A stretch of DNA of 34,342 nucleotides, taken from NCBI GenBank assembly GCA_964437545.1, contig CAYTHH010000001.1, positions 118,036 to 152,377 of the forward strand, in the 5' to 3' direction. This document shows, in pieces, positions 2,607 to 24,405 of this stretch. The stretch comes from an uncultured Candidatus Saccharibacteria bacterium (lineage in GTDB: Bacteria; Patescibacteriota; Minisyncoccia; Minisyncoccales; GWA2-46-15). The notes below the pieces were generated by a model. The model saw only the letters and a list, made by a program, of their open reading frames with translations. It ran no database searches and had not been told where the DNA came from. Numbering within the stretch: the first letter of the stretch is position 1; the number at the start of each line of letters is the position of its first letter. The translations under genes and the position numbers were made by a program.

Positions 2607-3298
2607 AGCAGAGTTGGCTGAACCGCAAGCTTCTTTTTAAATTCCTTCCAATTCATCTCCTGAGCGGTTGCCAGTTTGCAAATTTCTCTGAATTGGCAGA
2701 ATTGGCATTCCTTGTCCCTAGGATAAGCGGTCAATCTCTTTGGAATAACATTGGCATCAATCTTAGTCCTTAATGATTCCAAATCTCTTAAAAGCTTGTT
2801 AGCTAGAATCCGATCATAAAGAACAATAAATTCTTTTAATTCCTGAGTATCTTTATTTACATAGAGCAGAATTCCTTTCTTGATTCCGAAGAAGTGCAGA
2901 TAAAGCTGGAGCTGAAAAACATTGTCTGGTTTTGGCTGAGATAAGTTCTTGAATAAAAAGCTGTTTATGCTTTTAATATCTAAGACATAAAGCTCGTTTT
3001 CCCAGCTTAAAATCGCATCAGCCCGTCCTGAAATAATTTTCTGAGCTGGAATACTTATCTCTGAAGACCTAACAATTCCTAAGCTGAAAAGCGTGTTTAA
3101 GATAAGGCGGTGAATATAGTCGCCATGGTCAAACATTCTTAAGATTCTGGCCTCCATTTCTTTTTTAGGAGCATTCTTAAATTTAAAAAAAATTGACCGG
3201 GGACACTTGCCACCGTCAGTAATATAAAAGCGGGTTCTGGCTCTTTCTTTTGATCTTTCCCGGTCTAGATAGAACTTGTCAATTAATTCTTTAAGCAT
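2603..3298 (-). CDS. Solo Cas4-like PD-(D/E)XK nuclease with Fe-S cluster cysteines
   Basis: N-terminal GKCPR, GDYIH, ISGRADA, VLDIKS, QLQLY and C-terminal CQFCQFREIC; likely start ATG 3298 (MLKELID). Confidence 0.8.
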   Translation of the reverse strand: MLKELIDKFYLDRERSKERARTRFYITDGGKCPRSIFFKFKNAPKKEMEARILRMFDHGDYIHRLILNTLFSLGIVRSSEISIPAQKIISGRADAILSWENELYVLDIKSINSFLFKNLSQPKPDNVFQLQLYLHFFGIKKGILLYVNKDTQELKEFIVLYDRILANKLLRDLESLRTKIDANVIPKRLTAYPRDKECQFCQFREICKLATAQEMNWKEFKKKLAVQPTLL

Positions 3299-3463: not shown

Positions 3464-3531
3464 AATATAAAAGCGGGTTCTGGCTCTTTCTTTTGATCTT
3501 TCCCGGTCTAGATCATTAATTCTTTAAGCAT
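3464..3531 (-). repeat. Duplicated, frameshifted copy of the 5' end of the cas4-like gene
   Basis: 3464-3513 identical to 3221-3270 (50 bp); 3515-3531 identical to 3282-3298; net 10-bp deletion between. Confidence 0.92.
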
Positions 3532-3720: not shown

Positions 3721-3830
3721 TACTACGAAATACGAATTTTTACTAATATACTAATTTACGAAGTACGAATTTACAATTTCGGCTACGGATAAATTATTTG
3801 TATATTCGTACTGATTCATAATTGGTAGAA
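3721..3830. repeat. TACGAAT/TACTAAT heptamer palindromic element (inverted relative to the 6031 copy)
   Basis: 3724-3774 resembles the reverse complement of 6046-6094. Confidence 0.7.
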
Positions 3831-6030: not shown

Positions 6031-6094
6031 CCTACTAATTACGAATAAATTCGTACTTTGTAGATTAGTATATTAATAAAAATTAGTAATTCGT
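6031..6094. repeat. TACGAAT/TACTAAT heptamer palindromic element
   Basis: Ends CCTACTAATTACGAAT ... ATTAGTAATTCGT shared with the 7644 and 22929 copies. Confidence 0.8.
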
Positions 6095-7643: not shown

Positions 7644-7750
7644 CCTAGCAATTACGAATCAATACGAATATACCAATAGATTTTTTAGGTAAATTCGTGT
7701 AAATTCATGTTTTGTAGATTAGTATATTCGTAAAAAATTAGTAATTCGTA
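7644..7750. repeat. TACGAAT/TACTAAT heptamer palindromic element
   Basis: Shares 23 identical bp (CGAATATACCAATAGATTTTTTA) with 22949-22971 and TTTGTAGATTAGTATATT with 6057-6074. Confidence 0.8.
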
Positions 7751-8350: not shown

Positions 8351-9664
8351 TTAATCAAAGTCTATTTTAATCTCAATCTTTCTGTCATCTTGAGGCATTT
8401 TTTTGACTAAAGAAGGAAAGATTTTTATCCTTACTTGCGAAACCTGAGACAGCTCTTGGAAGCTTTTCTCAACCTCTTGAATTGACCTGCCTTTGAGTTG
8501 GGCTTTGATAAAGCTTATTTCCAAGTCCTGATAAACCTTGCCTGAAATCTGCAAAGACAGCTTGGCAGTAGCTAAAACCTCGTTAATCTCTTCAACTAAA
8601 GCATTTGTCTTAATGCTGTCAGATAAGAATTTTTGATCTTCGGGCAATTCAGCAATAAAATATGCCAGGCTTATTTCTTTTAAGTCTTCTTCGGCCAAAA
8701 GAATCGCTTGACCCCTGGCCTTAACTTGATAAGTGAAAGTCTCAGCGGCCTGACCAGCCTTAATATCAGTGCCGTCATCAATAATGACTGGATTCGCTTC
8801 TTGAACCAAAACCAATTCGGGTAAAGCCCTGTCTTTAAAAACATTATCGATCTTTTTCTTAGCTTCAGCTATTAAGGATTTTTTAGCTTCTTCTAAATCA
8901 GTTTCAGAAACAGATAGGCTTTCTCCCTTAAATCCTCCTGTCATGGGATCTGAAGACTTGGCATAAAAGGCAGTATATCTTGGAGTGCCGGCAAATCCAG
9001 GAATGGAAAAGGTCGAGTTGCCAATATTATAATCAGGACCGGCAATATCGGCTCTGACCAAAACATCAATTGTTCCCGGAACTAATCTGCCATTTTCCAT
9101 AGTTTGTCCTGGGACAACCGTTGCTTCCACCATCCTGAATAGTTTTCCCTCATCAGAAACAAACCTGGTAGTAGCCACTAATGGCTGACTGGCAGTAGAA
9201 TAATTATTATAAATACGAATTATGCCTTCGGCCTTAACTTCTTTTACAGCTCTACCGGTAGCCTCAAACTCTTCTGAAAAAACTTGCTCTTCTGTAATAA
9301 TTCTTCCAGGTAAAAGATGATTTAAAGCATCGACGGTTTTTATCTCTTTGTTAATCTCAACTTTCTGGTCTACGTTTAAATCATTGGTTTTGAGGCAAAT
9401 CTCAATTTTCACTATCGGCAAGAAAAAGTAAGCGCTAACTACCCCAGCAAGTAAGATAATTACCAAAGCCCCGATAATAATGGCTTTCTTTTTTGGCAAC
9501 CTTATTGGCTTTGGCTGAGGCGGCTTGATATCCTCCTCTTCTTCTTCTGGTTCTAATTCATTAACAACAGACTCTGACTCAACCACAGGCTTTGTTTCCA
9601 TTTCTTCTGCCACTGGCTCTGAACGGCTTAGCGGAGGAATAATATCAAATATTTTCTTGTCCAC
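8351..9664 (-). CDS. Membrane-anchored baseplate J/gp47-like protein of the type common in CPR
   Basis: Acidic N-terminus, TM helix, ATG...KAEG.I.IYN, QPLVATTRF, G..YNI, F.IPG, MTGG pattern; GTG start. Confidence 0.65.
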   Translation of the reverse strand: MDKKIFDIIPPLSRSEPVAEEMETKPVVESESVVNELEPEEEEEDIKPPQPKPIRLPKKKAIIIGALVIILLAGVVSAYFFLPIVKIEICLKTNDLNVDQKVEINKEIKTVDALNHLLPGRIITEEQVFSEEFEATGRAVKEVKAEGIIRIYNNYSTASQPLVATTRFVSDEGKLFRMVEATVVPGQTMENGRLVPGTIDVLVRADIAGPDYNIGNSTFSIPGFAGTPRYTAFYAKSSDPMTGGFKGESLSVSETDLEEAKKSLIAEAKKKIDNVFKDRALPELVLVQEANPVIIDDGTDIKAGQAAETFTYQVKARGQAILLAEEDLKEISLAYFIAELPEDQKFLSDSIKTNALVEEINEVLATAKLSLQISGKVYQDLEISFIKAQLKGRSIQEVEKSFQELSQVSQVRIKIFPSLVKKMPQDDRKIEIKIDFD

Positions 9665-9714
9665 GTCTTTATTTTAACAGTTTTTAAGGATTATGTCTTT
9701 ATTCTAATACTTTT

Positions 9715-11511
9715 TTATGAATTCTCCAATGCCCCTCGGATCCTTCTGATCCCTTTGGCAACTGCTTCTTCTTTAATAATTTTAAATATTCCTAATTCAG
9801 AAGTATTACTGACATGAGGGCCGCCGCAAACTTCTTTACTAAAATCGCCGATCTTGTAAACTTTAACTTTATCTGCATATTTATCTCTAAAGAAAGCAAC
9901 GGCGCCACTTGCCAAGGCCGCATCTTTATCCATTATTTCAAACGAAACTTCGAGATTTTGTTTTATCTTTGCATTAATCAAATCTTCAACTTCTTTTAAT
10001 TGATCTGGTGTCAATTTCTGATCATGGGAAAAATCAAATCTTAATCTCTCGGCAGTAATATTACTACCCTCTTGTCTTACTTGAGAATTTAAAACTTGTC
10101 TTAAAGCCGCATGTAAAAGATGGGTAGCGGTATGAAGCTTAACCACTTCATGGCTTTGATCTGCCAAACCACCTTTAAACATGCCTGCGGCTGCCTGACG
10201 GGAAATGTCCTGATGTTTTTTCTGCTCTTGCTCAAACTCCTCAAGATTAAACTCCTGTCCCCTTTCTTTAACAATTTCTAAAATCATTTCCAAAGGAAAA
10301 CCAAAGCTTTCGTAAATGTAAAATGCAGTTTTACCGTCAAGTTTTTCAACTTTGTCAATCTCTTTAAAACCGTTTCTTAAAGCTTTGTCAAAACGGTCAG
10401 CTTCTTGCTGGAAAGCAATTAAGATTTCCGCTTCCTTGTCTTTAAGGTCCGGAAAAATATCATCATAGGTTTTACAAACCATTCCAACTAAAGATTTTAG
10501 ATAATAACTTTCTATTAAGTTAAGTCTTCTGGCAAAAAGCATAGCTCTTCTCAATAGTCTTCTTAAAATATATCCCTGGGTTTTGTTTGAAGGCTGAATC
10601 CCCTCTCTGGCGATCATGACCGCCGCCCTGAAATGATCAGCCATAATTCTCATCGCCCGAGAAGTATTTTTATCGCTTAAATAATCTTTTTTAGATAAAG
10701 ATTGGATTATTTCAATCAAGGGCCAAAGCAGGTCAATCTGGAAAATATCAGGATTATTATTAACAGCCGCCACTAATCTTTCTAAGCCGCCGCCGAAGTC
10801 AACATTCTTTTGCAGCAATTCTTTGAAGGAGCCGTCAACTTGTTTTTGATACTGGATAAAAACTGAGTTGCCTATTTCCAGAAACCTGCCGCAATCGCAG
10901 TTAGGATGACAGCTAGAACCATATTTCAAATCATGAGCAACCTGCTTGAATTCATAAAAGATTTCAGAATCCAGACCGCCGATGTCTCCTACGGGCATTG
11001 ACTCAGGCGGACCAGATATTGACCACCAATTCTTTTCAACTCCATAAGAAAAAATTCTTTCTGAAGGAATCCCTAAATTTTTCCAAATAGTCAGAGATTC
11101 TTCATCTTGAGAAATACCAGTTGCCTTATCTCCTTTAAAAACTGAAACCCAAAGCTTGTCTTTTGAAAGACCCAGTTCCTGTGTCAAAAACTCATAAATC
11201 CAAGGCAATTGTTCTGCTTTAAAATAGTCTCCCAAAGACCAATTTCCTAACATTTCAAAAAAGGTAGTGTGACGGTTATCACCAACTTCTTCAATATCCT
11301 GTAATCTTAAAGACGGCTGGGAATTAACAAGTTTTTTGAATCCGGAAGAGTGTGGTTTACCTGAAAAATAAGGTATCAAAGGCTGCATACCACAAGAAGT
11401 AAATAATGTGGTCGGGTCTTCAGTCAACACCAAGGGCGCTGGAGTAATTACCTTATGTCCTCTCTTCTTAAAAAATTCAAAATATTTCTGTCGTACTTCT
11501 CTGGAAGTCAT
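9715..11511 (-). CDS. alaS: Alanine--tRNA ligase, short form lacking C-Ala domain
   Basis: HTTFFEMLGNWS.GDYFK, DFGGGLERL, editing HTATHLL and EVCGGPH; 598 aa. Confidence 0.96.
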   Translation of the reverse strand: MTSREVRQKYFEFFKKRGHKVITPAPLVLTEDPTTLFTSCGMQPLIPYFSGKPHSSGFKKLVNSQPSLRLQDIEEVGDNRHTTFFEMLGNWSLGDYFKAEQLPWIYEFLTQELGLSKDKLWVSVFKGDKATGISQDEESLTIWKNLGIPSERIFSYGVEKNWWSISGPPESMPVGDIGGLDSEIFYEFKQVAHDLKYGSSCHPNCDCGRFLEIGNSVFIQYQKQVDGSFKELLQKNVDFGGGLERLVAAVNNNPDIFQIDLLWPLIEIIQSLSKKDYLSDKNTSRAMRIMADHFRAAVMIAREGIQPSNKTQGYILRRLLRRAMLFARRLNLIESYYLKSLVGMVCKTYDDIFPDLKDKEAEILIAFQQEADRFDKALRNGFKEIDKVEKLDGKTAFYIYESFGFPLEMILEIVKERGQEFNLEEFEQEQKKHQDISRQAAAGMFKGGLADQSHEVVKLHTATHLLHAALRQVLNSQVRQEGSNITAERLRFDFSHDQKLTPDQLKEVEDLINAKIKQNLEVSFEIMDKDAALASGAVAFFRDKYADKVKVYKIGDFSKEVCGGPHVSNTSELGIFKIIKEEAVAKGIRRIRGALENS

Positions 11512-11512
11512 A

Positions 11513-11670
11513 CCAGGTAGTAGAAACTCGACTATTAGGAGAGCGAAGCTCTCTAGTCGATTTGCAAAATTACTTATCTTTTAATTATTTACTTTGCCAG
11601 ATAAATTCAGATATTACAGTAAAGCTTGTCGAGTTTCTACTATCCGAATAACGGATAATAGAATACCTGG
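11513..11670. mobile_element. CCAGGTAG-ended inverted-repeat element at the alaS start codon, flanked by CATA direct repeats
   Basis: TIR CCAGGTAGTAGAAACTCGAC / GTCGAGTTTCTAC-(23 nt)-TACCTGG; CATA at 11509-11512 and 11671-11674; homologous to 24031-24167. Confidence 0.8.
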
Positions 11671-11723
11671 CATATTCCATAATAACAAAAAAACAGCTGT
11701 TTAAAAAGTTGTTTTAAAAAATA

Positions 11724-11755
11724 AAATCAGCTACCGATGTTTTGGTAGCTGATTT
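11724..11755. terminator. Intrinsic terminator downstream of the orphan ORF
   Basis: AAATCAGCTACC / GGTAGCTGATTT 12-bp stem with A/T-rich flanks. Confidence 0.7.
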
Positions 11756-11796
11756 GTTTGAAAGAACTATTTAGGAGAGGAACGGCTCTCCTTTTT

Positions 11797-12162
11797 TTAT
11801 CCTTCTTTATAGTCTTCGGCTTTAACAGCCCAAAGACTATTTTCTCGGGCTAAATATTCTCTAGCCCGAGGTTTAACGTTAAAACCAAAGGTTTCTGCCA
11901 GGACGTGAGCTTTCCAAAAGCTCTTTTTCGTCTTGGCAACGCGAGCCCTTTGGGCTCGTAGCCCACGAATGCTGGCTCGAGCAATTTTAGCTGAATCTGG
12001 AGTCCCAAGCTCTTGCTCTTCGCAAGAGCATTGGAGCAAAAATTTCTCAGCTAAGTCGCTAAGAACCAGGTCTATAATCGCCTGGATTTGTTCTACCTCC
12101 CTTTCGTCTCTGACCTTTGGGTTGAGCCCAAAGGTCTTTTTAAAACTTAATTTTTTAAACAT
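11797..12162 (-). CDS. Hypothetical protein (121 aa)
   Basis: ATG 12162 preceded by SD GGAAGGAG; own promoter and terminator; no recognisable motif. Confidence 0.65.
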   Translation of the reverse strand: MFKKLSFKKTFGLNPKVRDEREVEQIQAIIDLVLSDLAEKFLLQCSCEEQELGTPDSAKIARASIRGLRAQRARVAKTKKSFWKAHVLAETFGFNVKPRAREYLARENSLWAVKAEDYKEG

Positions 12163-12337
12163 TATTATCTCCTTCCCAGCTTCTTTGGCTGGGACTAATA
12201 TTTTACCAACGTTCTTTGCGTTGGGCGTTTGACACGCTTCCTTCCGTCCACAGAGGAAGCTACTCAAACAGCAATTTGACTAAAACTCAGTTTCAAGCAA
12301 ATTGCTGTTGACTAACTTCTACTCTTGTCTTTATTCA

Positions 12338-12406
12338 TTTTCAAAGAACATTTCTTTTTCTCTTTCTTCTTATCTAAACTATAGCACAGATTATTATGTT
12401 TGTCAA
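12338..12406 (-). promoter_or_regulatory. Sigma70 promoter followed by boxA-like sequence
   Basis: TTGACA(12401-12406)-N17-TATAGT(12378-12383) with extended TG; TGTTCTTTGAAAA at 12338-12350. Confidence 0.65.
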
Positions 12407-12435
12407 TAGTAAAACAACCTTTGTATCCATATCTG

Positions 12436-13509
12436 CTAATTAATAATTCCCCCTCCTAAGAGTTCTTTGTTTTTGTAGAAAACAATTGTTTGACCCGGAG
12501 TAATCGCCCTTTCGGGCTTTTTAAATTTAAAGAGGACTTGATTAGGTTTTTTGGTTTTGCAAAGTATTCCTGCTGCTTCCTTTTGCCTGGAACGGATCTT
12601 GGCCTTAACTTTAAGAGGAAAAAACAATTTCTTACCTGAAATGAAATTAAGGTTTCCTGCCAATAATTCTTTAGAAAACAAATCTTTTTGTTTTTTTGTC
12701 AGAATCAGAATATTCTTTTTTGCATCTTTTTTCAAAACATAGTAAGGGCCTGAACTTCTTTCTTTTGGAAAAAGACTTGGAATAATCCCCTGTCTCTGGC
12801 CTATGGTATAAAGGCCTAATCCCTGATGTTTGCCAATTACCCTTCCCTGAACATTAATAATCTTACCCGGCTTCATTTTTAAATTAAGCTTTAAAAAAGA
12901 ATTAGCGTTATCAGCTAAAAAACAAAGGTTTTGGCTTTCTTTGGTTCTTGCCGTGATTAGTTTATGTTTTCTTGCCAAACTTCTGACTTCTGCCTTGGTA
13001 TAGTCTCCTATTGGAAAAAGGGTTTTTGCCAGCTGGTTCTGGTTTAATTTCCAGAGAAAGTAAGACTGATCCTTTTCCTTGTCTTTAGCTTTTAGCAATC
13101 TGAATAATCCTTTGTTAAAATCTTTTTTAGCATAATGCCCGGTAGCAATAAAGTCAGCCCCCATGCTAACGGCTTTTTCCAAAAACAACCCGAGTTTCAC
13201 TTTTTTATTGCAAACAACACAAGGATTGGGAGTTAATCCTTGTTTGGCTTGTTTTAAGAAATAACCAACGACTTCTTTTTTAAACTCTTTTTGAAAATCA
13301 AAAATATAGAAAGGAATTTTAAGGCTTCTGGCAACAATCCTGGCCCTTTTTTCAGATTCCAAGGTATAACAGATATTTTGTCTGGAAAACCCGGCATCTT
13401 GCCAAAACTTCATAAAAACCCCAATTACCTCATAACCTGCTTTTTTTAGCAGCCAAGCAGCTACTGACGAGTCTACGCCTCCTGATAAAGCTACAAACAC
13501 CTTAGCCAT
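12436..13509 (-). CDS. mnmA: tRNA 2-thiouridine(34) synthase
   Basis: ALSGGVDSS, TPNPCVVCN, IATGHYA, KDQSYFL, ESQNLCF, YTIGQR, ITPGQ; start MAKVF at 13509. Confidence 0.97.
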   Translation of the reverse strand: MAKVFVALSGGVDSSVAAWLLKKAGYEVIGVFMKFWQDAGFSRQNICYTLESEKRARIVARSLKIPFYIFDFQKEFKKEVVGYFLKQAKQGLTPNPCVVCNKKVKLGLFLEKAVSMGADFIATGHYAKKDFNKGLFRLLKAKDKEKDQSYFLWKLNQNQLAKTLFPIGDYTKAEVRSLARKHKLITARTKESQNLCFLADNANSFLKLNLKMKPGKIINVQGRVIGKHQGLGLYTIGQRQGIIPSLFPKERSSGPYYVLKKDAKKNILILTKKQKDLFSKELLAGNLNFISGKKLFFPLKVKAKIRSRQKEAAGILCKTKKPNQVLFKFKKPERAITPGQTIVFYKNKELLGGGIIN

Positions 13510-13510
13510 A

Positions 13511-14020
13511 TTATGAAAAATGGTCAGCCACGCATGAAGCTGCAAAAGCCTCGGGCTTTATCTTTAATTCAAAGCCGTTGCTGCGAATAATCCCGGCCAC
13601 CTCTTTAACCATTTCCTTGGTCTGGCCGCTTTCACCAACATCAGCGTGAATATAGCGAAATTGATAATTCGGAATAGTTTTTAATCCAATAATCCTTTCT
13701 TCTAAGGCCTCTCTTAAGTTAAGAGCCAATTCGCAGGACAAATAAACTTCTTCAAGAATCCTGGTTTTCCAATGATAAAACTTCTTATTCTGATAACTTA
13801 TTTTTTTGAGAAAAAACCTGCCTCCAAAGCCTGTTTTCAACACCACCACCACTAAAGGAAATTCTGGAAAGTCAGATGAAGCAGAATCACAACCGACAAT
13901 AACGTCATAAAACACCTCAGGACCTTGCTGAATGTATTCTAAAAGCTCGTCAATCATCTCATTAAATGAAAGATGGCCTTTACTGGGGTTATAGAAATCT
14001 TTTTCTGAAGATGAATCCAT
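13511..14020 (-). CDS. RNase H-like YkuK (DUF458) family protein
   Basis: IVGCDS, G.GGRFF, RILEEV.LS, IHADVG..G.T, IKPEAFAAS.VAD. Confidence 0.85.
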   Translation of the reverse strand: MDSSSEKDFYNPSKGHLSFNEMIDELLEYIQQGPEVFYDVIVGCDSASSDFPEFPLVVVVLKTGFGGRFFLKKISYQNKKFYHWKTRILEEVYLSCELALNLREALEERIIGLKTIPNYQFRYIHADVGESGQTKEMVKEVAGIIRSNGFELKIKPEAFAASCVADHFS

Positions 14021-14076
14021 GATCTTTTCCAATAGTGAGCAGGATGCTCAATATATCATACTCGCTATACCAATGA

Positions 14077-14799
14077 TCAAATCTTTAATGCTTCTTTTAT
14101 TTTCGCGGGATTTAATGAGGCCTGGCCAATAACAACTCCGTTAATCTCTTTTTGATTCAAATACTGCTTCAGATTAACCTCGTTAACGCTGCCTCCATAA
14201 ATAATACAAGGGGCTGATAAAGCATATTTCTTTTTTAAAAAGTCTTTGATTAGAACTAATTTTTCCTTAATTCTGGTCATGGATAATAACTTGCCACCTT
14301 GAGTGCTAATTGAAAAAGCCGGTTCATAAACAAACAAGATCTTTTTCAAATTTTTTTTATCAATGCTCTTGAGAACCAAATCAAGGCCAGCTGTTATTTC
14401 TTTATCTGAATCTTTTTTTGTTTCTCCAAAGAATAATAAGGGCTTAAGGTTAGCCATCAAAGCAGCTTTTAATTTCTCAGCAATTATTTTATCAGTCTCG
14501 TTAAAAAACCTTCTTCGCTCTGAATGACCCACTAATACATAACCACAACCAACACCTTTTAGCATTAAGGGTGAAATTTCTCCAGTGTATGGCCCCACCC
14601 CTGATACCCAAAAACAGTTTTGCCCGCAAGTCTCAATTTTAAAATCTTTCTTAATCTTTTCTAAAAAAACAAATGGAGCGCAAACAACAACTTGATGCTT
14701 GCTTAAAAAAGCGCTTTGTTTTAATGGCGACATTAAGTTTAAAACCCCTTTCCAGTTTAAAGGATAACATTTCCAGTTTAAAAAAATGTATTTTTTCAT
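14077..14799 (-). CDS. tpiA: Triosephosphate isomerase
   Basis: NWK, GPYTGEIS, GHSERR, YEP, YGGSV; start may extend to TTG 14826. Confidence 0.93.
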   Translation of the reverse strand: MKKYIFLNWKCYPLNWKGVLNLMSPLKQSAFLSKHQVVVCAPFVFLEKIKKDFKIETCGQNCFWVSGVGPYTGEISPLMLKGVGCGYVLVGHSERRRFFNETDKIIAEKLKAALMANLKPLLFFGETKKDSDKEITAGLDLVLKSIDKKNLKKILFVYEPAFSISTQGGKLLSMTRIKEKLVLIKDFLKKKYALSAPCIIYGGSVNEVNLKQYLNQKEINGVVIGQASLNPAKIKEALKI

Positions 14800-14822
14800 A
14801 TTTTTATTAATAAACGTAGTTT

Positions 14823-15293
14823 TCAAGCTCCGCTTATAAAATTAATTAATCCCAAAGAAAGTAAAGAAACAATAATCCCGGATATTAAGGTTCCAAAGAA
14901 AACCAGCCAGATTCCTTTTTTAGCCGGCACTTCCAGAATTAAACTGGCGATAGCTCCTGTCCAACCACCTACTAATGGAATAGGCAGAGCAGTTAAAATC
15001 AGTACAGTTAAATCACAGCCCATTTTCCCTAAGAGCAGATTTGCTTTTTTACCAATTTTGAAAAATAGCCAATCAAAAAACTTTTTAAAGAATAAACATT
15101 CCCTGGAAAGAAAATTAGCAATCGGCCTACCCAGAAAAATAATTCCCCATAAAGGCACTAAATTCCCGGCTACTGATAAACCATATGCTTTCCATAATGG
15201 CAAATTATATGCTTTCAAAGCCACAGGGATAGCACCCCTAAGCTCAATGATCGGCGACATGGCAATTAAAAAAGTCTTTAATTCGGGGATCAT
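14823..15293 (-). CDS. Small multi-drug export family membrane protein
   Basis: PIIELRGAIP, GNL.P, PIPL.GGWTG. Confidence 0.85.
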   Translation of the reverse strand: MIPELKTFLIAMSPIIELRGAIPVALKAYNLPLWKAYGLSVAGNLVPLWGIIFLGRPIANFLSRECLFFKKFFDWLFFKIGKKANLLLGKMGCDLTVLILTALPIPLVGGWTGAIASLILEVPAKKGIWLVFFGTLISGIIVSLLSLGLINFISGA

Positions 15294-15319
15294 AACTGAT
15301 GATTATATGAATTTAAGAA

Positions 15320-16051
15320 TTATAGGTTATACTTGTCAGTAATTAAGTTCCACCTAATTTGTAAAACCTCAAAAAAAGTCTTAATAATTTCAGACAATCT
15401 GAAGTTTGATCTGAAATCATTCTTCCAAATAACCGGAATCTCTTTGATTTGATAACCAAGCTTTTTAGCCAAGGCCAGAGATTCAACATCAAAACCCCAG
15501 CGATTAATCGTAGTTTTACTGAAAATATTCTGGGCTGAGTCAGCGGTAAAACACTTAAAACCGCACTGACTGTCCCAAATGCCGTTAAGTCCGCCAACGG
15601 TTTGAATAACAAGATTTCCAGTTTTACCAACGAGTTTTCTTAACCATGGCTGGCTTGGACTAACCACAGCCCCCTTAATAGCTCTGGATCCAATCACTAC
15701 TTCATAACCTTGTTTCAAAATAGGCCAGACTTTTTCTACTTGATCAATAGAAACAGAATTATCGGCGTCAGTAAAAAGACGATATTGGCCCAAGGCTTCA
15801 AGCATACCCTGTTTAACAACAAACCCTTTGCCATGGTTTTTTGGGTTATTAAGCAATTTTAAATTAGCTATTTTAAATTTAGCTTTTTCTACCAATTGAG
15901 CAGTATTATCCCGAGAGCCGTCATTAACAACCATAATCTCGTAAGAATAAGATTGTGTCTTTAAATAAGCGTCAATTTCTTCTAGGGTTTTATTCAGTCG
16001 ACTTTCTTCGTTGTAGGCAGGAATAATAACTGATAAATAAACTTTGTTCAT
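15320..16051 (-). CDS. GT2 glycosyltransferase (polyprenol-phosphate glycosyltransferase-like)
   Basis: SVIIPAYNE, VNDGSRD, GKG, FTDAD, DSQCGFK, WGFDVE. Confidence 0.9.
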   Translation of the reverse strand: MNKVYLSVIIPAYNEESRLNKTLEEIDAYLKTQSYSYEIMVVNDGSRDNTAQLVEKAKFKIANLKLLNNPKNHGKGFVVKQGMLEALGQYRLFTDADNSVSIDQVEKVWPILKQGYEVVIGSRAIKGAVVSPSQPWLRKLVGKTGNLVIQTVGGLNGIWDSQCGFKCFTADSAQNIFSKTTINRWGFDVESLALAKKLGYQIKEIPVIWKNDFRSNFRLSEIIKTFFEVLQIRWNLITDKYNL

Positions 16052-16075
16052 TGCCCTATTTTAGCATAACCAAGC

Positions 16076-16819
16076 CTATCTTGTCAGAATCTTGGGTTCT
16101 TTGGAAGTAATAGCTATCATATCTTCAAAATGACAAGCTAAAGAATTATCAGTAGTTTTATAGGCAAAACCGTCCTTAGCTTTTTCCAGCTGCCAACTCC
16201 CAACTGTTACCATTGGCTCAATGCAGATAACCATGCCTGGCTTGATTTCCGGGCCCGTGCCTCTTTTGCCAAAATTAAGAACCTGAGGCTCCTCGTGAAT
16301 TTCTTTGCCAATACCATGGCCGCAAAGCTCTCTGACAACGTTAAAGCCATTAGATTCAGCTATATCCTGAGTAATCCATTCAATGTCGCCAATATGGTTC
16401 CCTGGCTTGGCATATTTAATAGCTGCATCTAAAGCTTGCTTAGTAACCTTAATAAGCTTTTTTTGAAGTTTGTTGGGTCTGCCCACTACCGCTGTCCTAG
16501 CCATATCAGCCTGATAACCCTGATAACAAAGCCCTAAGTCAAAAGAAATCATATCCCCTATCTTTAAAACCCGATCTGATGGCAAGCCATGAACAACTTC
16601 TTCATTAATAGAAACGCAAAGAGAATTGGGAAAACCGTCATAACCTTTAAAAGACGGCGTACTGCCCGATTCTAAAATGAGACGCTCGGCAAGCTCGTCT
16701 AATTCTATGGTTTTAATGCCTGGCTTGATCTGCTCGGCGATCTTTTTCATGATCTGAGCCAAGATTTGGCCGGCTTCAGCCATAATTTGGATTTCTTTCC
16801 GCGTTTTAATGTTAATCAT
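16076..16819 (-). CDS. map: Methionine aminopeptidase type I
   Basis: SINEEVVHG.P, DMART, GHGIG..IHEEP, IEPM, HFED. Confidence 0.97.
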   Translation of the reverse strand: MINIKTRKEIQIMAEAGQILAQIMKKIAEQIKPGIKTIELDELAERLILESGSTPSFKGYDGFPNSLCVSINEEVVHGLPSDRVLKIGDMISFDLGLCYQGYQADMARTAVVGRPNKLQKKLIKVTKQALDAAIKYAKPGNHIGDIEWITQDIAESNGFNVVRELCGHGIGKEIHEEPQVLNFGKRGTGPEIKPGMVICIEPMVTVGSWQLEKAKDGFAYKTTDNSLACHFEDMIAITSKEPKILTR

Positions 16820-16887
16820 TTGTCTTATTAATATCTTTTATCAATATTTTTTATTTCATTGTTTTTTATTCATTTAAGACAAATCGC

Positions 16888-16925
16888 CATACCCACTTTT
16901 TCACGATCGTAATAATTTGGGTATG
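16888..16925. repeat. 38-bp palindromic repeat, downstream copy
   Basis: CATACCCACTTTTTCACGATCGTAATAATTTGGGTATG; 34/38 identical to 17479-17516. Confidence 0.9.
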
Positions 16926-16933
16926 ATAACAAA

Positions 16934-17476
16934 TTAAATAGCTTCAACCTCTTCTATTAAAAATACCCGTACTGATTTTTCCAGAAAAAGTCCTTGGGAT
17001 AATTTTTGCACTTTTTCCAGAACATCATAGGGAGATATCCAAATACTCTTTTGAAACATTTGAAAGCCCAGGCTCCGCAAAAGTGAACGAAGCCGATCTC
17101 TAATTTTTCTTCTTTTCTCAGGAATATCAAATACTACCATCACCCATTTACCATCCGATCTTTTCTTCTTTTCCGTTAATTTCATTCTGATTCGTAAAAT
17201 TTTCTCTGCCCCTCGAGGAGTTATCAATACCCCCTTTTTTCCTTTAATTTCTTTGACAGTAACGAAACCTGCTTTCTTTAAACGATAAATTAGTTTGGAA
17301 AGATTTCTCTTTAATTTTTTTTTCTCGAATCTGCGTCGAACCTGAATCATTTCAGGCCACAATCCTTCTTTCATACTGCGGGGAACTCCAAAAATAATGT
17401 CGCCAAAAGCCTCATCAATGCTAACACAAAGATCAAAAATATCACAAAGTAATTCTTCCGAAAAAGATATTTTCAT
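16934..17476 (-). CDS. PaaX-like protein: wHTH plus Cas2-like ferredoxin domain (often annotated CRISPR-associated Cas2)
   Basis: IYRLKKAGFV...ITPRG (wHTH); DGKWVMVVFDIPEKRR..RD.LR..L..LGF...QKSIWISP. Confidence 0.85.
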   Translation of the reverse strand: MKISFSEELLCDIFDLCVSIDEAFGDIIFGVPRSMKEGLWPEMIQVRRRFEKKKLKRNLSKLIYRLKKAGFVTVKEIKGKKGVLITPRGAEKILRIRMKLTEKKKRSDGKWVMVVFDIPEKRRKIRDRLRSLLRSLGFQMFQKSIWISPYDVLEKVQKLSQGLFLEKSVRVFLIEEVEAI

Positions 17477-17478
17477 TA

Positions 17479-17516
17479 TATACCCATTCTATCACGATCG
17501 TAATAATTTGGGTATG
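17479..17516. repeat. 38-bp palindromic repeat, upstream copy, overlapping an extended -10
   Basis: TATACCCATTCTATCACGATCGTAATAATTTGGGTATG; minus strand reads TG-A-TAGAAT 9 nt before ATG. Confidence 0.9.
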
Positions 17517-17534
17517 GTATGAAATTATAGAATA

Positions 17535-18260
17535 CTACTTTGCTTTTTTACCTAATGCTTTTAAGATATTTTTAAAAACTATAGCTGGAGCCGGAGAACC
17601 GTTGATTTTTTTCACTAGAATGCCTTGCTCTTTAAAGTAACTAACCATGGGCAAGGTGGTATTTTTATAGACTCGCAAGCGCTCCTTGATGATTTGAGGA
17701 TCGTCCAAACCTTTTCTCTTGAGTAACTTAGAGCCATCTAAAGGACAATTCTTCAGATTAGCTGTTTCTTTAGAAAATAGTATGGGATGGCGCATTAATT
17801 CGCATATCTTGCGATGAGAATTCCTGAAAATGCTTTCTTGAGCTGAAACTTCAAGTAAAATAACCTTAATATTTTTAACGCCGTAAAGTTTTTTCAGAAA
17901 CGGCATTAAATCTTTTGCCTGGTCAACTGAACGAGGACTGCCAGCTAAAAGCAAACTTTCCCCTTTCTTAAAATATTCAGAAATCTTTTCGCTCATTAAA
18001 AAATTGACAAAAGGATCGCTATTCAAAAGACCAGTCTGCCATCTTTTTTTCTCATCAGCCAGAAAATACTTTTTGCCCTTAACAGCAATAAAATCATTCT
18101 TGCTGGCACTCATCATTTTGGCTTCAAGAACCTTGCTCGTCTCGAGATAATACAAGCTAAACTGATCAGCTAAAAGTTCGGCCTGAGTTCCTTTGCCAGA
18201 ACCCGGAGCACCCATTATTATTACTACTTTTTTCTGGTTCTTTGATTGAACTTTTCTCAT
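17535..18260 (-). CDS. adk: Adenylate kinase
   Basis: P-loop GAPGSGKGTQA, GSPRS..QA, LID region; position after secY. Confidence 0.9.
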   Translation of the reverse strand: MRKVQSKNQKKVVIIMGAPGSGKGTQAELLADQFSLYYLETSKVLEAKMMSASKNDFIAVKGKKYFLADEKKRWQTGLLNSDPFVNFLMSEKISEYFKKGESLLLAGSPRSVDQAKDLMPFLKKLYGVKNIKVILLEVSAQESIFRNSHRKICELMRHPILFSKETANLKNCPLDGSKLLKRKGLDDPQIIKERLRVYKNTTLPMVSYFKEQGILVKKINGSPAPAIVFKNILKALGKKAK

Positions 18261-18299
18261 AGATTTTATATTACCTAAAAATAGAATGCTTAATTAAAG

Positions 18300-18364
18300 G
18301 CTGATTTATACGGATACTGCTGATTTATGCCGATCTGTATTAATCAGTTAAATCAGCATTAATC
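18300..18364. repeat. GCTGATTTA/TAAATCAGC repeat-hairpin element
   Basis: GCTGATTTA at 18300 and 18319; TAAATCAGC at 18349 plus further TAATC copies. Confidence 0.6.
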
Positions 18365-18369
18365 GATGT

Positions 18370-19647
18370 CTAGAAAGTATCGTATTCTCTCATTTCCAGT
18401 TGGGCATTGATGGCATTCAGAGTTTCCAAGACCACGCTAACAACAATTAAAAGCGAAGTGCCGCCAACCAAAAATTGAAAAGATTGCACCCCGGTTAACC
18501 CTTGGACAATTGAAGGCATAACCGCGATCAACCCCAAGGACAAAGCGCCAACCACCAGAATCTTGTTTAAAACAGAAGATAGAAATTCAGCCGTCGAACT
18601 CCCTGGCCTGATGCCGGGAATAAAGCCGCCCATTTTCTGCAAGTTTTCAGCAATTGATTTGGGATCAAAAGTAACCATGGTATAGAAAAAGGTAAAAACG
18701 AAAACAAGTAAAAAGTAGAGGACGCCATGGATCCAAGGATCTTGGAAAAAGCTGGAAACCCCGACAAAGAACTTGCCAACGTTGCCAGGAGAGCCAACAA
18801 AAAAGTTGGCAATCATAGTTGGAAACAAAAGAAAAGAAATCGCAAAGATAATCGGAATCACTCCGGCCGGATTAACATTAATCGGCAAGTAGGTTGAAAC
18901 TCCGCCATATAGCTTATTGCCCCTGACTCTTTTGGCATAAGAAACCGGAATATTTCTCCGAGCTTCAGTAATCAAAACTACACCGGCAATAATGGCAATT
19001 GAAGAAATAAAGAAAAGAATGTAAGAAAGTAGCTTAGTAGGATCATAAACTAAAGCCATTTGCCTGATACTGTTTGGAAAATCAGCAATAATACCGGCGA
19101 AAATCAGCAAAGAAATACCGTTGCCCATTTTCTTTTCAGAAATCAATTCCCCAAGCCAAACCAGCAGCATACTGGCAGCAGCCATTGTTAAAAGAGAAGA
19201 AAACATTAATAAAGGCGATAACTCACCGATAATTTGCTGTCTTTTGAAAACGATCAACATTGAATAGCCCTGTAAAAAAGCTAAAGGCACGGTTAAAATC
19301 CGGCCATACTGGTTAAACTTCTGTCTTCCCTTCTCCCCTTCTTCTTTATAAAGTTTTTCCAGAGCTGGAAAAATCATTGTCAGCAACTGTAAGATAATGG
19401 TGCCGGTAATATAAGGACCAACGCCAAGCATAACAATCGAGAGGTTGTCTAAAGCACCTCCTGAAAAAATATTCAATAGTCCAAAAAACTGATTACCTTC
19501 GAGAAACTGCCTTAGTTTATCAGTTTCAATTCCGGGAATTGGAATATTGGCCATAATTCTGAAAATGATAAAAACCCCTAAGATAAATAGAATCTTGTTC
19601 CTTAATTCTGATACTTTGAAAATTTGTAAAAACTTTTTATACCACAT
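18370..19647 (-). CDS. secY: Preprotein translocase subunit SecY
   Basis: LGVGPYIT, GNGISLLIF, AGVIPIIFA, FIPGIRPG, GGTSLLIVV. Confidence 0.99.
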   Translation of the reverse strand: MWYKKFLQIFKVSELRNKILFILGVFIIFRIMANIPIPGIETDKLRQFLEGNQFFGLLNIFSGGALDNLSIVMLGVGPYITGTIILQLLTMIFPALEKLYKEEGEKGRQKFNQYGRILTVPLAFLQGYSMLIVFKRQQIIGELSPLLMFSSLLTMAAASMLLVWLGELISEKKMGNGISLLIFAGIIADFPNSIRQMALVYDPTKLLSYILFFISSIAIIAGVVLITEARRNIPVSYAKRVRGNKLYGGVSTYLPINVNPAGVIPIIFAISFLLFPTMIANFFVGSPGNVGKFFVGVSSFFQDPWIHGVLYFLLVFVFTFFYTMVTFDPKSIAENLQKMGGFIPGIRPGSSTAEFLSSVLNKILVVGALSLGLIAVMPSIVQGLTGVQSFQFLVGGTSLLIVVSVVLETLNAINAQLEMREYDTF

Positions 19648-19686
19648 TTTTTAGATAGTTTAAATACATTAGCTAAGGCAGCACTG

Positions 19687-20118
19687 TTATTTAATTGTTG
19701 ATTTGGATTTTTTAATCTTAGCCAAAGCTGATGTTGTATAAGTGCAGCCTTCAAAAATCAAAGTCTTGGTTAAATGGCCATTTCCTAGAATTTTTAATCC
19801 GAAAGTCTTTTTTCTGGGCAAAGAAATCAGCTTCTTTTCAGCTAAAGTCTGGCGATTAACTGTTTCGCCCTTGTTATAGGCTTTTTCAATCTGACCCAAA
19901 TTCAACTCAAGTCTTATTCTTGGCATAGTTGACGAAACATGGCCTTTAAGCTTAGGATATCTTTTCATAATATCCCTGATAACTGGCTTTAAGTGTTTAC
20001 CAGCTCTGGTTTTTTGACCCTTAACACCCCGGCCACAATAAGTGCCCTTTTTACCGCCCCTGCCCTTCCTTTTGGCAATATCTCTCTTATGAGTTTGTTT
20101 GACTTGGTATAGCTGCAT
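19687..20118 (-). CDS. rplO: 50S ribosomal protein L15
   Basis: GRGGKKGTYCGRGVKGQKTRAG, KILGNG. Confidence 0.95.
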   Translation of the reverse strand: MQLYQVKQTHKRDIAKRKGRGGKKGTYCGRGVKGQKTRAGKHLKPVIRDIMKRYPKLKGHVSSTMPRIRLELNLGQIEKAYNKGETVNRQTLAEKKLISLPRKKTFGLKILGNGHLTKTLIFEGCTYTTSALAKIKKSKSTIK

Positions 20119-20626
20119 TTTTGATAGCTTTAAGTTTCAATTTTTTCAAAGCTGCCATAGTGGCTCGAGCATTATTAAGCTTGTTGCTAGTCCGCCCTAT
20201 TTGTTTTGATGAAATATTTTTAATACCAGCTAAAAGACAAATTGTTCTGATTGTGCCTCCAGCCACTAATCCCCTGCCCTGGCGCTGGGGTTTTAACATA
20301 ATTCTGGCTGGACCGTATTTAGCATAAATCTCGTGGGGAATAGTGTCATTGATAATCGGCACTTCAATTAGATTTTTTTTAGCTAACTTGGTGGCTTTTT
20401 GAACTGATTGTTGAACATCTAATCCCTTAGAAACGCCGACTCCAACTTTGCCCTTTTTATTACCAACCACCACCACTGACCTAAATCTCATATGCTTGCC
20501 GCCAGCCGTCACTCTGGTTACCCTGGCTAAATCTAAAAGTTTGGAATCATATTCGGACACCGGTTTAACAAAAGCCCTCCTGCGTCCGCCTCTCTGTTGT
20601 CCGCCAAAATTTCTTGTAAAAGCCAT
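20087..20626 (-). CDS. rpsE: 30S ribosomal protein S5
   Basis: RVTRVTAGG, VVVGNKKG.VG.G, TIPHE. Confidence 0.98.
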   Translation of the reverse strand: MAFTRNFGGQQRGGRRRAFVKPVSEYDSKLLDLARVTRVTAGGKHMRFRSVVVVGNKKGKVGVGVSKGLDVQQSVQKATKLAKKNLIEVPIINDTIPHEIYAKYGPARIMLKPQRQGRGLVAGGTIRTICLLAGIKNISSKQIGRTSNKLNNARATMAALKKLKLKAIKNAAIPSQTNS

Positions 20627-20666
20627 ATTGATTGGATAAATTTAAAAACGAGTTAGTTTTAATAAG

Positions 20667-21038
20667 TTAAAAATGAAGACCAGCTTTTCTGGCAGCTTCA
20701 GCTAAAGCCTTAACTCGGCCATGATATTTAAAACCAGAACGGTCGAAAACAACCTTTGTAATCTTTTTTTTGCCAGCTTTATCGGCAATTAACTTGCCGA
20801 CCTCACTAGCTGCTTTAGTTTTAGTCGCCCGCACTGACCGGGTTTTTTTTAATTCAAGACTAGAAGCAGATCCCAGAATTTTACCATTAATGTCATCTAC
20901 CAATTGAGCATATGTATGTTGGCTGGATTTGAAAACAGAAAGTCGGGGCATAGCTAACGTTCCCTTGATTTTAGCTCGGATCCTGGCGTGACGCCGTTGA
21001 CGTCTTTGTATTTTTTGTTTGTTTTCTTTGGGATTCAT
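20667..21038 (-). CDS. rplR: 50S ribosomal protein L18
   Basis: PRLSVFKS, VVFDRSGFKYHGRVKALA. Confidence 0.98.
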   Translation of the reverse strand: MNPKENKQKIQRRQRRHARIRAKIKGTLAMPRLSVFKSSQHTYAQLVDDINGKILGSASSLELKKTRSVRATKTKAASEVGKLIADKAGKKKITKVVFDRSGFKYHGRVKALAEAARKAGLHF

Positions 21039-21089
21039 TTCAAATTATATGTCTGTAAATTCTTGCTAGAATTTATATTTTTTTCTTTT

Positions 21090-21665
21090 TTAGGCAACGG
21101 TACCTGCCTTCTTGCCAGGCTTTTTCTTAATCACCTCGCCCTGATATCTTACTCCTTTGCCTTTATAGGCATCAGGAACTCTTAATTTCTTAATTGTTGA
21201 AGCGGTCTGGCCAACTAATTCTTTATCAATACCGGTGACTTTAATAACATTTTTTAAAACCGAAATATCAATTCCAGGCACTTTTGTTATCTTCAGGTCA
21301 TGGCTATAGCCAAGAAATAGAACCAAGTCTCCATTAGCTTCAACATTAGCCTTGTATCCTAGCCCCTCAAACTCAAGGGACTTTTCATAACCCTGAACTA
21401 CTCCCTGGATCATATTAAAAATCCGGCTCCTGGTCAAACCCCAAAAAGACTTGATCTTTTTCTTCTGACCCGAAGTTAGTTTCCGACCTTCTTTTTGTTT
21501 TTCTAAAGAAACAAAAATCTGATTGTCTTTGATTTCAATCTTAACCTCTTTGGGAAAAGTAAAACTAAGCTCACCCTTAGGACCGGTGACAGTAACTTTT
21601 CCGTCTTTAAATTCAGTTTTAACCTCTGCAGGAATTAAAATTGGTTGTTTTCCAATACGTGACAT
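21090..21665 (-). CDS. rplF: 50S ribosomal protein L6
   Basis: MSRIGKQPI, GPKGEL, YKGKGVRY. Confidence 0.98.
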   Translation of the reverse strand: MSRIGKQPILIPAEVKTEFKDGKVTVTGPKGELSFTFPKEVKIEIKDNQIFVSLEKQKEGRKLTSGQKKKIKSFWGLTRSRIFNMIQGVVQGYEKSLEFEGLGYKANVEANGDLVLFLGYSHDLKITKVPGIDISVLKNVIKVTGIDKELVGQTASTIKKLRVPDAYKGKGVRYQGEVIKKKPGKKAGTVA

Positions 21666-21674
21666 AGTTTTAAA

Positions 21675-22061
21675 TTACCAGATTTCACAAATTACTTCAC
21701 CGCCTAAATTATTCTTTTTGGCCAAAAACCCCGGCATGACTCCTTTTGAAGTAGAAACAATCACAATTCCTCGGCCGCCCTTGGTTGATTTTATCTTAGC
21801 GGTTGGAAAATAAGTCCTCTGGCTGGGCTTGGAAACTTTCTTGAAGCTGGAAATCATTGGCAAACCATCTTGATACTTTAAATTAACGTCCAGAACTTTT
21901 TTAACGCCTCGACCTCTTTTTTCAACCTTGGAAATATAATCAAACTTTTTCAAAACTTTTAAGATTTCGTGCTTAAAATTAGAATAGCTGAAAGAAACCG
22001 TTTCCTTTGAAACCGCTTGAGCATTTTTTATTTCGTTGAGCATTTGAGCTACCGGGTCCAT
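21675..22061 (-). CDS. rpsH: 30S ribosomal protein S8
   Basis: MDPVAQML, VSKPSQR.Y, STSKGVM, GGEVIC. Confidence 0.97.
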   Translation of the reverse strand: MDPVAQMLNEIKNAQAVSKETVSFSYSNFKHEILKVLKKFDYISKVEKRGRGVKKVLDVNLKYQDGLPMISSFKKVSKPSQRTYFPTAKIKSTKGGRGIVIVSTSKGVMPGFLAKKNNLGGEVICEIW

Positions 22062-22081
22062 ATATTTAGATTATATTATCA

Positions 22082-22267
22082 TTACCAACTGCTTTTTGTA
22101 ACTCCAGGAATTTCTCCGCGACAAGCGGCTTCCCTAAAACAAATCCGGCAAAGACCAAAATCTCCCATATAGCCTCTGGCTCGGCCGCACCTAAAACAAC
22201 GCCTGACAATCCTGGTTGAGAATTTTGGTTTTTTATTTGATTTTGCGATTTGTCCTTCAGTAGCCAT
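22082..22267 (-). CDS. rpsN: 30S ribosomal protein S14, zinc type
   Basis: [22 protein letters not shown]. Confidence 0.98.
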
Positions 22268-22338
22268 GTCTTTTTAAATCTTTAAATATAAGTGTTATGT
22301 CTTTTTAAATCTTTAAATATAAGTGTTATGTCTTTTAA
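22266..22338. repeat. 31-bp tandem repeat, ~2.3 copies
   Basis: ATGTCTTTTTAAATCTTTAAATATAAGTGTT at 22266 and 22297, partial at 22328. Confidence 0.9.
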
Positions 22339-22359
22339 AAAATTATTATTAGGATTATG

Positions 22360-22920: not shown

Positions 22921-22928
22921 GTTTTTTA

Positions 22929-23007
22929 CCTACTAATTACGAATAGGTCGAATATACCAATAGATTTTTTATACAGATTCGTATATTCGTATAAATTAGT
23001 AATTCGT
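22929..23007. repeat. TACGAAT/TACTAAT heptamer palindromic element
   Basis: CCTACTAATTACGAAT ... ATTAGTAATTCGTA ends. Confidence 0.8.
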
Positions 23008-23011
23008 AGAA

Positions 23012-23317: not shown

Positions 23318-23398
23318 AATTTTGAACAAAGTGAGAAATTATGGAATCAAGATTTTATTGAGTAAAACGAAGTAAAATTTATTTTCATAAATCGTGAA

Positions 23399-23770: not shown

Positions 23771-23777
23771 AATTGAA

Positions 23778-24029: not shown

Positions 24030-24030
24030 A

Positions 24031-24167: not shown

Positions 24168-24171
24168 CATA

Positions 24172-24372: not shown

Positions 24373-24405
24373 GTTAATACTTCATTTAATTTAGACCGAG
24401 TTTAC

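Follow-up and report, generated by a model that had tools for sequence, protein, structure and literature searches.

How is a gene expressed when a hairpin-forming element separates its start codon from its promoter? This question is raised by alaS in a stretch of 34,342 nt (the window; contig CAYTHH010000001.1 of assembly GCA_964437545.1) from an uncultured Candidatus Saccharibacteria bacterium. Directly in front of alaS lies a gene-less element of 158 bp with inverted ends and a TATG on either side, the downstream TATG containing the start codon. The element is an insertion. With a probability of roughly 0.85, we regard it as a non-autonomous miniature inverted-repeat transposable element (MITE) of a small mobile family of candidate phyla radiation (CPR)/Patescibacteria genomes, whose parents are forms of ~310 bp with a gene for a GIY-YIG nuclease. 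No description of this family was found in the literature searched, supplements apart.

The insertion site at alaS

The alaS site is read on the minus strand, and coordinates are positions of the whole window. It comprises the following features.

11724–11755, minus strand: terminator-like hairpin with a T run, found by sequence scan, which ends the upstream gene
11679–11687, minus strand: extended −10 box TGTTATTAT of the host alaS promoter, identical in relative G003 and similar in five others
11671–11674, minus strand: upstream TATG copy of the target duplication (its ATG at 11673–11671)
11614–11673, minus strand: predicted short open reading frame (ORF) of 19 codons plus stop, MPGILLSVIRIVETRQALL, which spans the promoter-proximal arm; similar MPGSENS-type ORFs occur in other copies
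11513–11670, minus strand: gene-less element (probable MITE), 158 bp, in the same orientation as alaS and absent in 9/9 relatives
11628–11670, minus strand: promoter-proximal inverted end, consisting of CCAGGTA (11670–11664), a 23-nt insert (11663–11641) and GTAGAAACTCGAC (11640–11628)
11539–11553, no strand assigned: sub-terminal hairpin GAGAGC-GAA-GCTCTC, found by folding; GCGAAGC stands on the plus strand
11513–11532, minus strand: gene-proximal inverted end GTCGAGTTTCTACTACCTGG
11509–11512, minus strand: downstream TATG copy, containing the alaS start codon (11511–11509)
9715–11511, minus strand: alaS, 598 aa, PF01411 (E 5e-116) and PF07973

The alaS 5′ region was taken from ten other genomes of the family, and in nine of these the 5′ end was on the contig. 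The element was absent from all nine, with promoter and N-terminus aligning on both sides of the site. In relative G003 the same upstream terminator and the same TGTTATTAT are followed by TAACTATC-ATG, and a TGnTAnnAT box lies 6–9 nt before the alaS ATG in six of the nine relatives (G003 and five others). Since the −10 box and the terminator are matched in relatives, the host promoter is old, and its transcript would start on or within ~3 bases of the ATG. The terminator hairpin closes the upstream gene, so that alaS requires a promoter of its own. As judged from these alignments, the element has been dropped between the old host promoter and the alaS ATG, and the ancestral alaS mRNA was probably leaderless or nearly so, as a first-pass annotation of the DNA had proposed. 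In genomes G007 and G005 (L082 and L083) the region upstream of alaS is filled with multiple copies of another short palindromic repeat (ATAGCGGGCAGTAGCCCGATATATCG-like); the alaS spacer attracts other repeats too.

Sequence and coordinates agreed with the first-pass annotation, which had placed a 158-bp element between the extended −10 box and the alaS ATG. The box was correctly identified; its spacing to the first TATG is 4 nt (GGAA), however, and not the 5 nt given there, which is the distance to the ATG within that TATG. The inverted ends are 20 nt long. In the alaS copy one of them is divided into 7 + 13 nt by the 23-nt piece TTCTATTATCCGTTATTCGGATA, which forms a hairpin of its own (TATCCG/CGGATA); this interruption was found as described before, and so were the inner hairpin at 11539–11553 and the GTCGA at 11556–11560. 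Alternatively, the 23-nt piece and the inner arm may be taken together as another complete 20-mer resembling an end, TCGGATAGTAGAAACTCGAC, with 3 mismatches. The final 12 nt preceding the alaS ATG are CTACTACCTGGT.

The absence of a Shine-Dalgarno (SD) sequence had been noted at alaS, but it turned out to be a genome-wide rule. Crude ORFs were called from the first ATG in each of the non-overlapping frames with at least 100 codons, which gave 436 ORFs covering 82% of the genome. Upstream of them, SD-like words were not enriched at −18 to −4 (7.1%) compared with a control segment at −40 to −26 (8.5%); SD use was judged here from the upstream sequences, the 3′ end of the 16S rRNA being missing from the assembly. 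The lack of an SD is uninformative at alaS because the whole genome is without this signal. Upstream of the crude ORFs, G is depleted and A/T is enriched up to the ATG, TANNNT peaks at −12 (42 vs ~15; n = 435) and TGNTANNNT peaks at −15 (18 vs ~1–2 elsewhere; n = 435). The missing SD enrichment together with the −10 peaks argues for an SD-independent translation start and for a sizeable class of leaderless genes. At alaS, TGTTATTAT stands 5 nt before the upstream ATG, in keeping with the spacing of about 6–8 nt expected for this class. The leaderless interpretation of alaS, for which the −10 spacing and the relatives speak, would accordingly not depend on the SD and stands. The 16S rRNA gene itself (C1:1–1916 of this genome, L047) stops at the contig end at model position 1082; as 1,916 nt are spanned for 1082 model positions, it appears to contain ~800 nt of inserted sequence.

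Copies in the genome and across the order

A search for the ends revealed 8 copies of ~95–161 bp in the 524-kb genome holding the window (G000). Six of them are complete, and each of these abuts an ATG with 0–1 nt between, in gene orientation.

Window 11513–11670, minus strand: alaS
Window 24031–24167, minus strand: rpsQ; 137 bp between the rpmC stop (TAG) and the rpsQ ATG, with TATG at 24168–24171 and 24027–24030
C1:83777–83908: trmD
C4:44141–44292: a murA-family gene
C9:15221–15375: the gene of an S1-domain protein
C1:153308–153468: a 62-aa ORF without Pfam match

The host genes were confirmed by Pfam at five of these six start codons; the gene behind the rpsQ copy, for instance, is S17. The remaining two copies are degenerate and lie at no recognisable start, one of them with the duplication TTTA. 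The sole ORF within the copies comprises 12–19 codons and opens at the upstream ATG. The copies at rpsQ and trmD are operon-internal. TATG occurs 2,948 times in this genome, 686 times outside crude ORFs and 178 times at crude ORF starts, and the position of six of eight copies at starts gives a binomial p of 1e-6 against all TATG and of 0.005 against those outside ORFs.

The copies at alaS and rpsQ, both flanked by TATG, are indeed two copies of one element, as had been noticed from the sequence. At the position equivalent to the inner hairpin of the alaS copy, the rpsQ copy carries the hairpin TAGCAAAG/CTTTGCTA. An independent contig of 1,980 nt, from another run, reads through this copy without difference. 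The mechanical ORF list opens rpsQ at a TTG inside the element (23778–24059, 93 aa); the gene in fact begins with the ATG at 24029, which gives 83 aa with the S17 domain from residue 8 onwards. The copy at C1:153308–153468 is 91% identical to the alaS copy, contains the same 23 nt in the same end and has a TATG duplication of its own at the outer CCAGG. As the 23-nt interruption is common to two copies with separate duplications, the interrupted form must have been copied after the interruption arose. The side hairpin formed by the 23 nt would fit a recognition of the folded end-to-end stem, or of the outermost bases only. The 62-aa ORF behind this copy, just past the window end, is Cys-rich and basic and has no Pfam match at E ≤ 1e-5; we read it as ribosomal-protein-like.

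To follow the family further, 401 genomes sampled from the order were searched with a 17-nt end motif (at most one mismatch) and with the reversed pattern as control. The motif was present in 43 genomes, the control in 6. At 19 of the 30 loci fetched, an ATG with an ORF of at least 50 codons begins within 5 nt after the end. Pooling yielded 41 distinct two-ended copies, 27 of which abut an ORF of at least 50 codons, although the pooled genomes are kin and the copy counts are not independent. Perfect 4-bp direct repeats flank 24 of the 41 copies; they are mostly TATG, and AATG, TATT, CATG, CGTA and CATA occur as well. Because the repeats vary in this way, the flanks are true target duplications. 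Clearly, the family lies mostly on start codons and in gene orientation, and its 4-bp duplication is nearly always TATG. Owing to the duplication, one ATG stays with the promoter (or other upstream signals) of the host, and another heads the intact gene.

In a congener (G006, 64% complete), copies precede genes read as dnaB, tsf, an L23-like gene, a membrane protein gene and a sigma factor gene. Gene names in the relatives (dnaB, tsf, rpsB, EF-G, uvrB, ileS, smpB, frr, glyS and others) are readings of the N-termini and not search results. The S1 gene is the only one of the six G000 host genes which is also occupied in G006. The interiors of the two S1-gene copies do not match, which indicates repeated hits on one site. 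At locus L038 of G006 (1496–1864), two tandem elements, each with its TATG, stand before the gene read as a sigma factor, and within the sub-terminal hairpin of the second lies a further mini-copy. We also considered that the element might be tied to leaderless promoters, the single-stranded DNA of the open complex serving as target. Only ~9–10 of 29 start-codon copies have a −10 box at leaderless distance, and this idea was dropped because the number does not exceed the estimated genome background.

GIY-YIG forms and comparison with known systems

Four loci from four genomes (G038, G044, G136 and G192; L048/L095, L049/L094, L054/L090 and L069/L091) contain versions of 311–323 bp with the same ends. 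Their interior is a single ORF of 87–91 aa, which starts ~27 nt from the left end and whose stop overlaps the right end. All four ORFs encode GIY-YIG proteins (PF01541, E 3e-13 to 2e-18); this was the only Pfam match, and NCBIfam gave no match above cut-off for the element nuclease. By sequence, the closest solved structures are UPF0213 BH0048, UPF0213 EF2693 and SLX1 (E 1e-5, 2e-4, and 2e-3 to 6e-3, respectively). L053 is an internally deleted copy retaining the last ~30 codons of the ORF. With inverted ends, a duplication varying from site to site, dispersed gene-less copies, empty sites and a longer coding form, the family shows the marks of a MITE family.

A search with the L054 protein gave matches at E ≤ 1e-18 in 112 of the 401 genomes, and the flanks were read directly for the 13 best loci. 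Of the 11 best homologues, 10 lie between inverted ends which match or co-vary from one subfamily to another (CCAGGTAGTGAAAATTCGA..., CCCCGTAGTAGAATTTCAAA..., CCCCGTAGAGAAATTTCGAA...), with xATG before them and TATG plus a gene behind. In all 10, the ORF starts within ~30 nt of the host initiation site. A general rule that the nuclease ORF borrows the host ATG in frame did not hold, as this is the case in two of the 10 (L090 and L091); the others have an ATG of their own 25–26 nt in, out of frame with the upstream ATG.

The closest published system is that of the Ssn nucleases and their NTS repeats, in which a single-domain GIY-YIG gene of ~100 aa has its own repeat on both sides and the repeat is also scattered gene-less through the genome, often beside genes (PMC11893778, as far as the text was available). 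The layout NTS-ssnA-NTS has been likened by its authors to an insertion sequence (Chenal et al., 2025; PMC11893778). Our end-flanked homologues resemble this layout; the likeness holds for the full-length forms of the relatives and not for the alaS copy. The systems differ in that NTS/SRM repeats are self-contained hairpins of ~30 nt, whereas the ends studied here pair only with each other, and the available part of that source reports neither a target duplication nor a start-codon preference for NTS (PMC11893778). Its host groups are mainly Gram-negative (PMC11893778). Ssn is defined by CDD cd10448, in the portion of the source at hand, and by a site-specific cleavage of single-stranded DNA; the element nuclease was compared through Pfam and NCBIfam.

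In size and form, the gene-less copies resemble the Correia elements of Neisseria (CREE/NEMIS) and other MITEs, which are likewise gene-less, ~100–160 bp long and equipped with inverted ends and a target duplication (PMC2649163, PMC10969869, PMC2229807, in the parts available). Correia elements are, according to the available text of one of these sources, co-transcribed with their neighbours and can alter the expression of the adjacent gene, and their transcribed ends are bound and cleaved by RNase III (PMC2649163). On the other hand, they do not lie on start codons and have no sequence relation to the element at alaS. Correia elements duplicate TA, and we know of no coding parent for them. 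Their defining marks (the TA duplication, Neisseria-type ends and an IHF site) are not those of the present family, whose duplication is 4 bp. The alaS copy resembles a Correia-type MITE in its form and probably also in the behaviour of its RNA. The IS200/IS605 elements with their REP/PATE derivatives are comparable in their very small size, hairpin-based end recognition, gene-less derivatives and strong bias for a tetranucleotide target and for orientation. They are not known to duplicate their target or to have inverted ends, in contrast to the inverted ends and the perfect 4-bp duplications described above, and their enzyme is an HUH tyrosine transposase in place of a GIY-YIG protein. UPF0213 (BH0048, EF2693) and SLX1 have the GIY-YIG fold family in common with the element protein but are not known to be mobile or to be carried between inverted ends; SLX1 has, in addition, extra domains and a partner.

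Folding of the element and expression of alaS

Both strands of the alaS and rpsQ copies were folded and compared with shuffled sequences (mononucleotide shuffles for DNA and both-strand folds). As RNA or as DNA, both strands fold far better than the shuffles (z −4.5 to −6.6). The alaS leader from the upstream ATG to +40 of alaS gives −56.7 kcal/mol (z −4.5), with an end-to-end stem of 10 + 13 bp in which the 5′ AUG pairs with a UAU containing the A and U of the alaS AUG; the rpsQ leader is similar (−51.8 kcal/mol, z −5.2). The extra pairs at the foot form only in the sense RNA because TATG self-pairs through G-U. Neither end folds alone; the ends pair across the element. The 23 nt fold as a side hairpin on a three-way junction, around which the 7-bp and 13-bp parts of the stem are stacked.

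The first-pass annotation had stated that the inner hairpin keeps its structure while its sequence changes, and this could be extended to the family. The 45 nt before the gene-proximal end reach −8.7 kcal/mol or lower in 17 of 19 distinct mid-size copies, and z is ≤ −2.5 in 14 of the 19; a control segment from the opposite end reached this value in 1 of 19. The stem of this sub-terminal hairpin is built from at least six different, unrelated sequences, and its loops are often GAA, GAAA or GTAA. DNA mini-hairpins of the GCGAAGC type are extraordinarily stable, as stated in the accessible part of PMC13037366. In the alaS subfamily this motif is antisense; in several others it is found on the sense strand. 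Full-length forms have the 3′ end of their ORF at this place and no hairpin, so that the sub-terminal hairpin characterises the gene-less forms.

With the host −10 box intact, alaS would still be transcribed from its own promoter. Its mRNA would start at or beside the upstream ATG and carry the element as a 162-nt leader, which is predicted to fold into a long hairpin with the first two bases of the alaS AUG paired at its foot. That expression needs processing, bypass or a conformational switch, as had been suggested, is plausible from the predicted structure. Our first choice, held tentatively, is that RNase III, whose gene is present (C1:85629–86021), would cut the 20–23-bp stem and thereby re-create an mRNA with a short leader similar to the ancestral one. 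As a second choice, which we consider rather doubtful, ribosomes starting at the upstream AUG may read the 19-codon ORF, melt the stem and free the alaS AUG; at alaS this upstream AUG would be a leaderless start, and at rpsQ, where the short ORF has 12 codons, a start coupled to the rpmC stop. Direct initiation on a breathing stem seems unlikely. The switch that had been proposed, an alternative pairing of TCGAC with GTCGA, has little to recommend it, as it amounts to only 4–5 pairs around the self-complementary TCGA.

Several points weigh against the interpretation of the insert as a MITE of a GIY-YIG family, or against parts of it. That the nuclease moves the family is suggested by the architecture of the full-length forms; to our knowledge, GIY-YIG enzymes are not known as transposases, and the 4-bp duplication requires a staggered cut, which is hypothetical for such an enzyme. 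A GIY-YIG partner with these ends was not found in G000, and the copies may therefore be immobile there. The only GIY-YIG gene of this genome (C9:4403–4633, an 80-codon frame 39% identical to the element nuclease) lies directly behind a tRNA 3′ end and is without the element's inverted ends. The mid-size interiors were considered as a relic of the nuclease gene, but they have no significant similarity to it (best E 0.003, short). Part of the start-codon bias could be due to survivorship in a genome which is at least 82% coding. As for expression, a look-up of RNA runs for window positions 9000–18999 listed none; the transcript start of alaS, its processing and the translation of the short ORF are all predicted from sequence, and at alaS and rpsQ the distance from the stop of the short ORF to the host ATG, 102–105 nt, is long for coupling. 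Finally, four lake-water DNA runs (X8–X11) were compared over 11000–24500. None of their listed contigs spans the alaS copy, in which contigs end at 11621, and no empty-site form was seen in the four runs, nor a joint skipping exactly 11513–11670 or 24031–24167; joints from 11536, 11601 or 11603 to 24148 represent other copies of the family, one of them with the interior of the murA copy.

The missing span is also what a repeat-induced mis-join at the alaS start would produce. Contigs are expected to end inside any repeat, however, and an assembly artefact is hardly credible here: G003 has the matching terminator and TGTTATTAT in front of its own alaS, the coding side matches the alaS N-terminus, the flanks show a clean TATG duplication, and the sister copy at rpsQ is bridged without difference in another run. 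Scarcely more probable is a regulatory leader specific for alaS, such as a T-box-like element, another riboswitch or an attenuator working through alternative TCGAC pairings. The position directly upstream of an aminoacyl-tRNA synthetase gene, the strong structure and the possible 4–5-bp pairing would suit it, but the same element precedes unrelated genes and is absent at alaS in all nine relatives. In addition, the Rfam scan gave no match in the window at gathering thresholds, so that no known leader family was recognised; at 11400–11800 the best score was at most 23 bits, compared with gathering scores of at least 40, and T-box was not among the sub-threshold matches. The reading as an alaS-specific leader is largely refuted.

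Two further explanations leave the insertion itself untouched. The element might supply an outward promoter of its own, giving alaS an ordinary leader and making the old promoter irrelevant. New promoters can arise at the ends of Correia elements (PMC2649163, in the part available). The A/T-rich interior contains −10-like words such as AAATAATT, and operon-internal and promoter-less sites are tolerated. However, neither TGNTANNNT nor a good −10 hexamer was found at a conserved place in the sense strand of 18 copies, and a consensus scan of the minus strand from 11400 to 11900 gave none. By our reading, CTACTACCTGGT before the ATG offers no usable −10 either. The host −10 box is intact at alaS, and a box of the same type lies upstream of both rpsA insertions (G000 and G006). 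An internal promoter is thus improbable. Only slightly better placed, and still improbable, is a domestication of the hairpins, which the host would keep as RNase III entry sites, mRNA stabilisers or governors of translation. The genes hit include essential ones (alaS, rpsQ, trmD, murA and the S1 protein gene), the sub-terminal hairpin is conserved in structure and not in sequence, and the 5′-most AUG and the host AUG meet at the foot of the stem. Against a retained function, the sites turn over: alaS is empty in the relatives, the S1 gene is the only shared host in the 64% complete G006 and has a different interior there, the spread over the order is patchy (43/401 genomes), and degenerate and gene-free copies exist. 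We therefore retain the interpretation as a MITE of a mobile family.

The window contains further repeats. A second family, rich in TACGAAT/ATTCGTA, occupies intergenic spacers at 3725–3773, 6046–6094, 7698–7736, 22949–23011 and 28652–28684, in direct and inverted orientation, with units of 39–49 nt and 85–90% identity. Inverted arrays of short ATACYAGATAC-like units at 28531–28616 and 31021–31101 (arms 25–32 nt, 81–96% complementary) bracket a 2.4-kb stretch including a 399-aa ORF (29814–31013). An exact direct repeat of 50 nt occurs twice, 243 nt apart (3221–3270 and 3464–3513). Tandem units are found at 22261–22350 (three of 31 nt) and at the window end (34249–34328, two exact units of 40 nt), and a spacer in the ribosomal protein cluster (24840–24942) forms a hairpin with 33-nt arms, 82% complementary, and a 37-nt loop.

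For annotation, inserts of this kind in CPR genomes are likely to give false upstream starts, such as the rpsQ TTG inside the element, and to break assemblies at start codons. If our interpretation holds, the family provides a natural test of start-codon choice without SD pairing, as six core genes of a 524-kb genome would work with a hairpin of 130–160 nt placed 1 nt before their ATG. It would also add a design of mobile element in which the target duplication rebuilds the host start codon. With a parent that consists of hardly more than a gene for a 90-aa nuclease between two stems, the family would bear on the minimal requirements of transposition and on how Ssn-like GIY-YIG nucleases function in biology. 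It is possible, though speculative, that the ~310-bp forms are complete self-mobilising transposons, with a structure-specific GIY-YIG nuclease of 90 aa as their sole protein, which parasitise start codons at TATG, and that alaS is kept alive behind the hairpin of one of their derivatives. If so, they would be the smallest autonomous DNA transposons known and would use a new transposase chemistry. Insertion at TATG would let the host initiation site, be it a leaderless promoter or a coupled stop-start junction, drive the frame of the element. The host gene could restart thanks to the ATG duplication at the foot of the stem formed by the two ends: RNase III would trim the mRNA until it is nearly leaderless, or ribosomes would open the stem. 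In this view, alaS would exemplify in nature how an essential leaderless gene is kept alive behind a hairpin of 162 nt.

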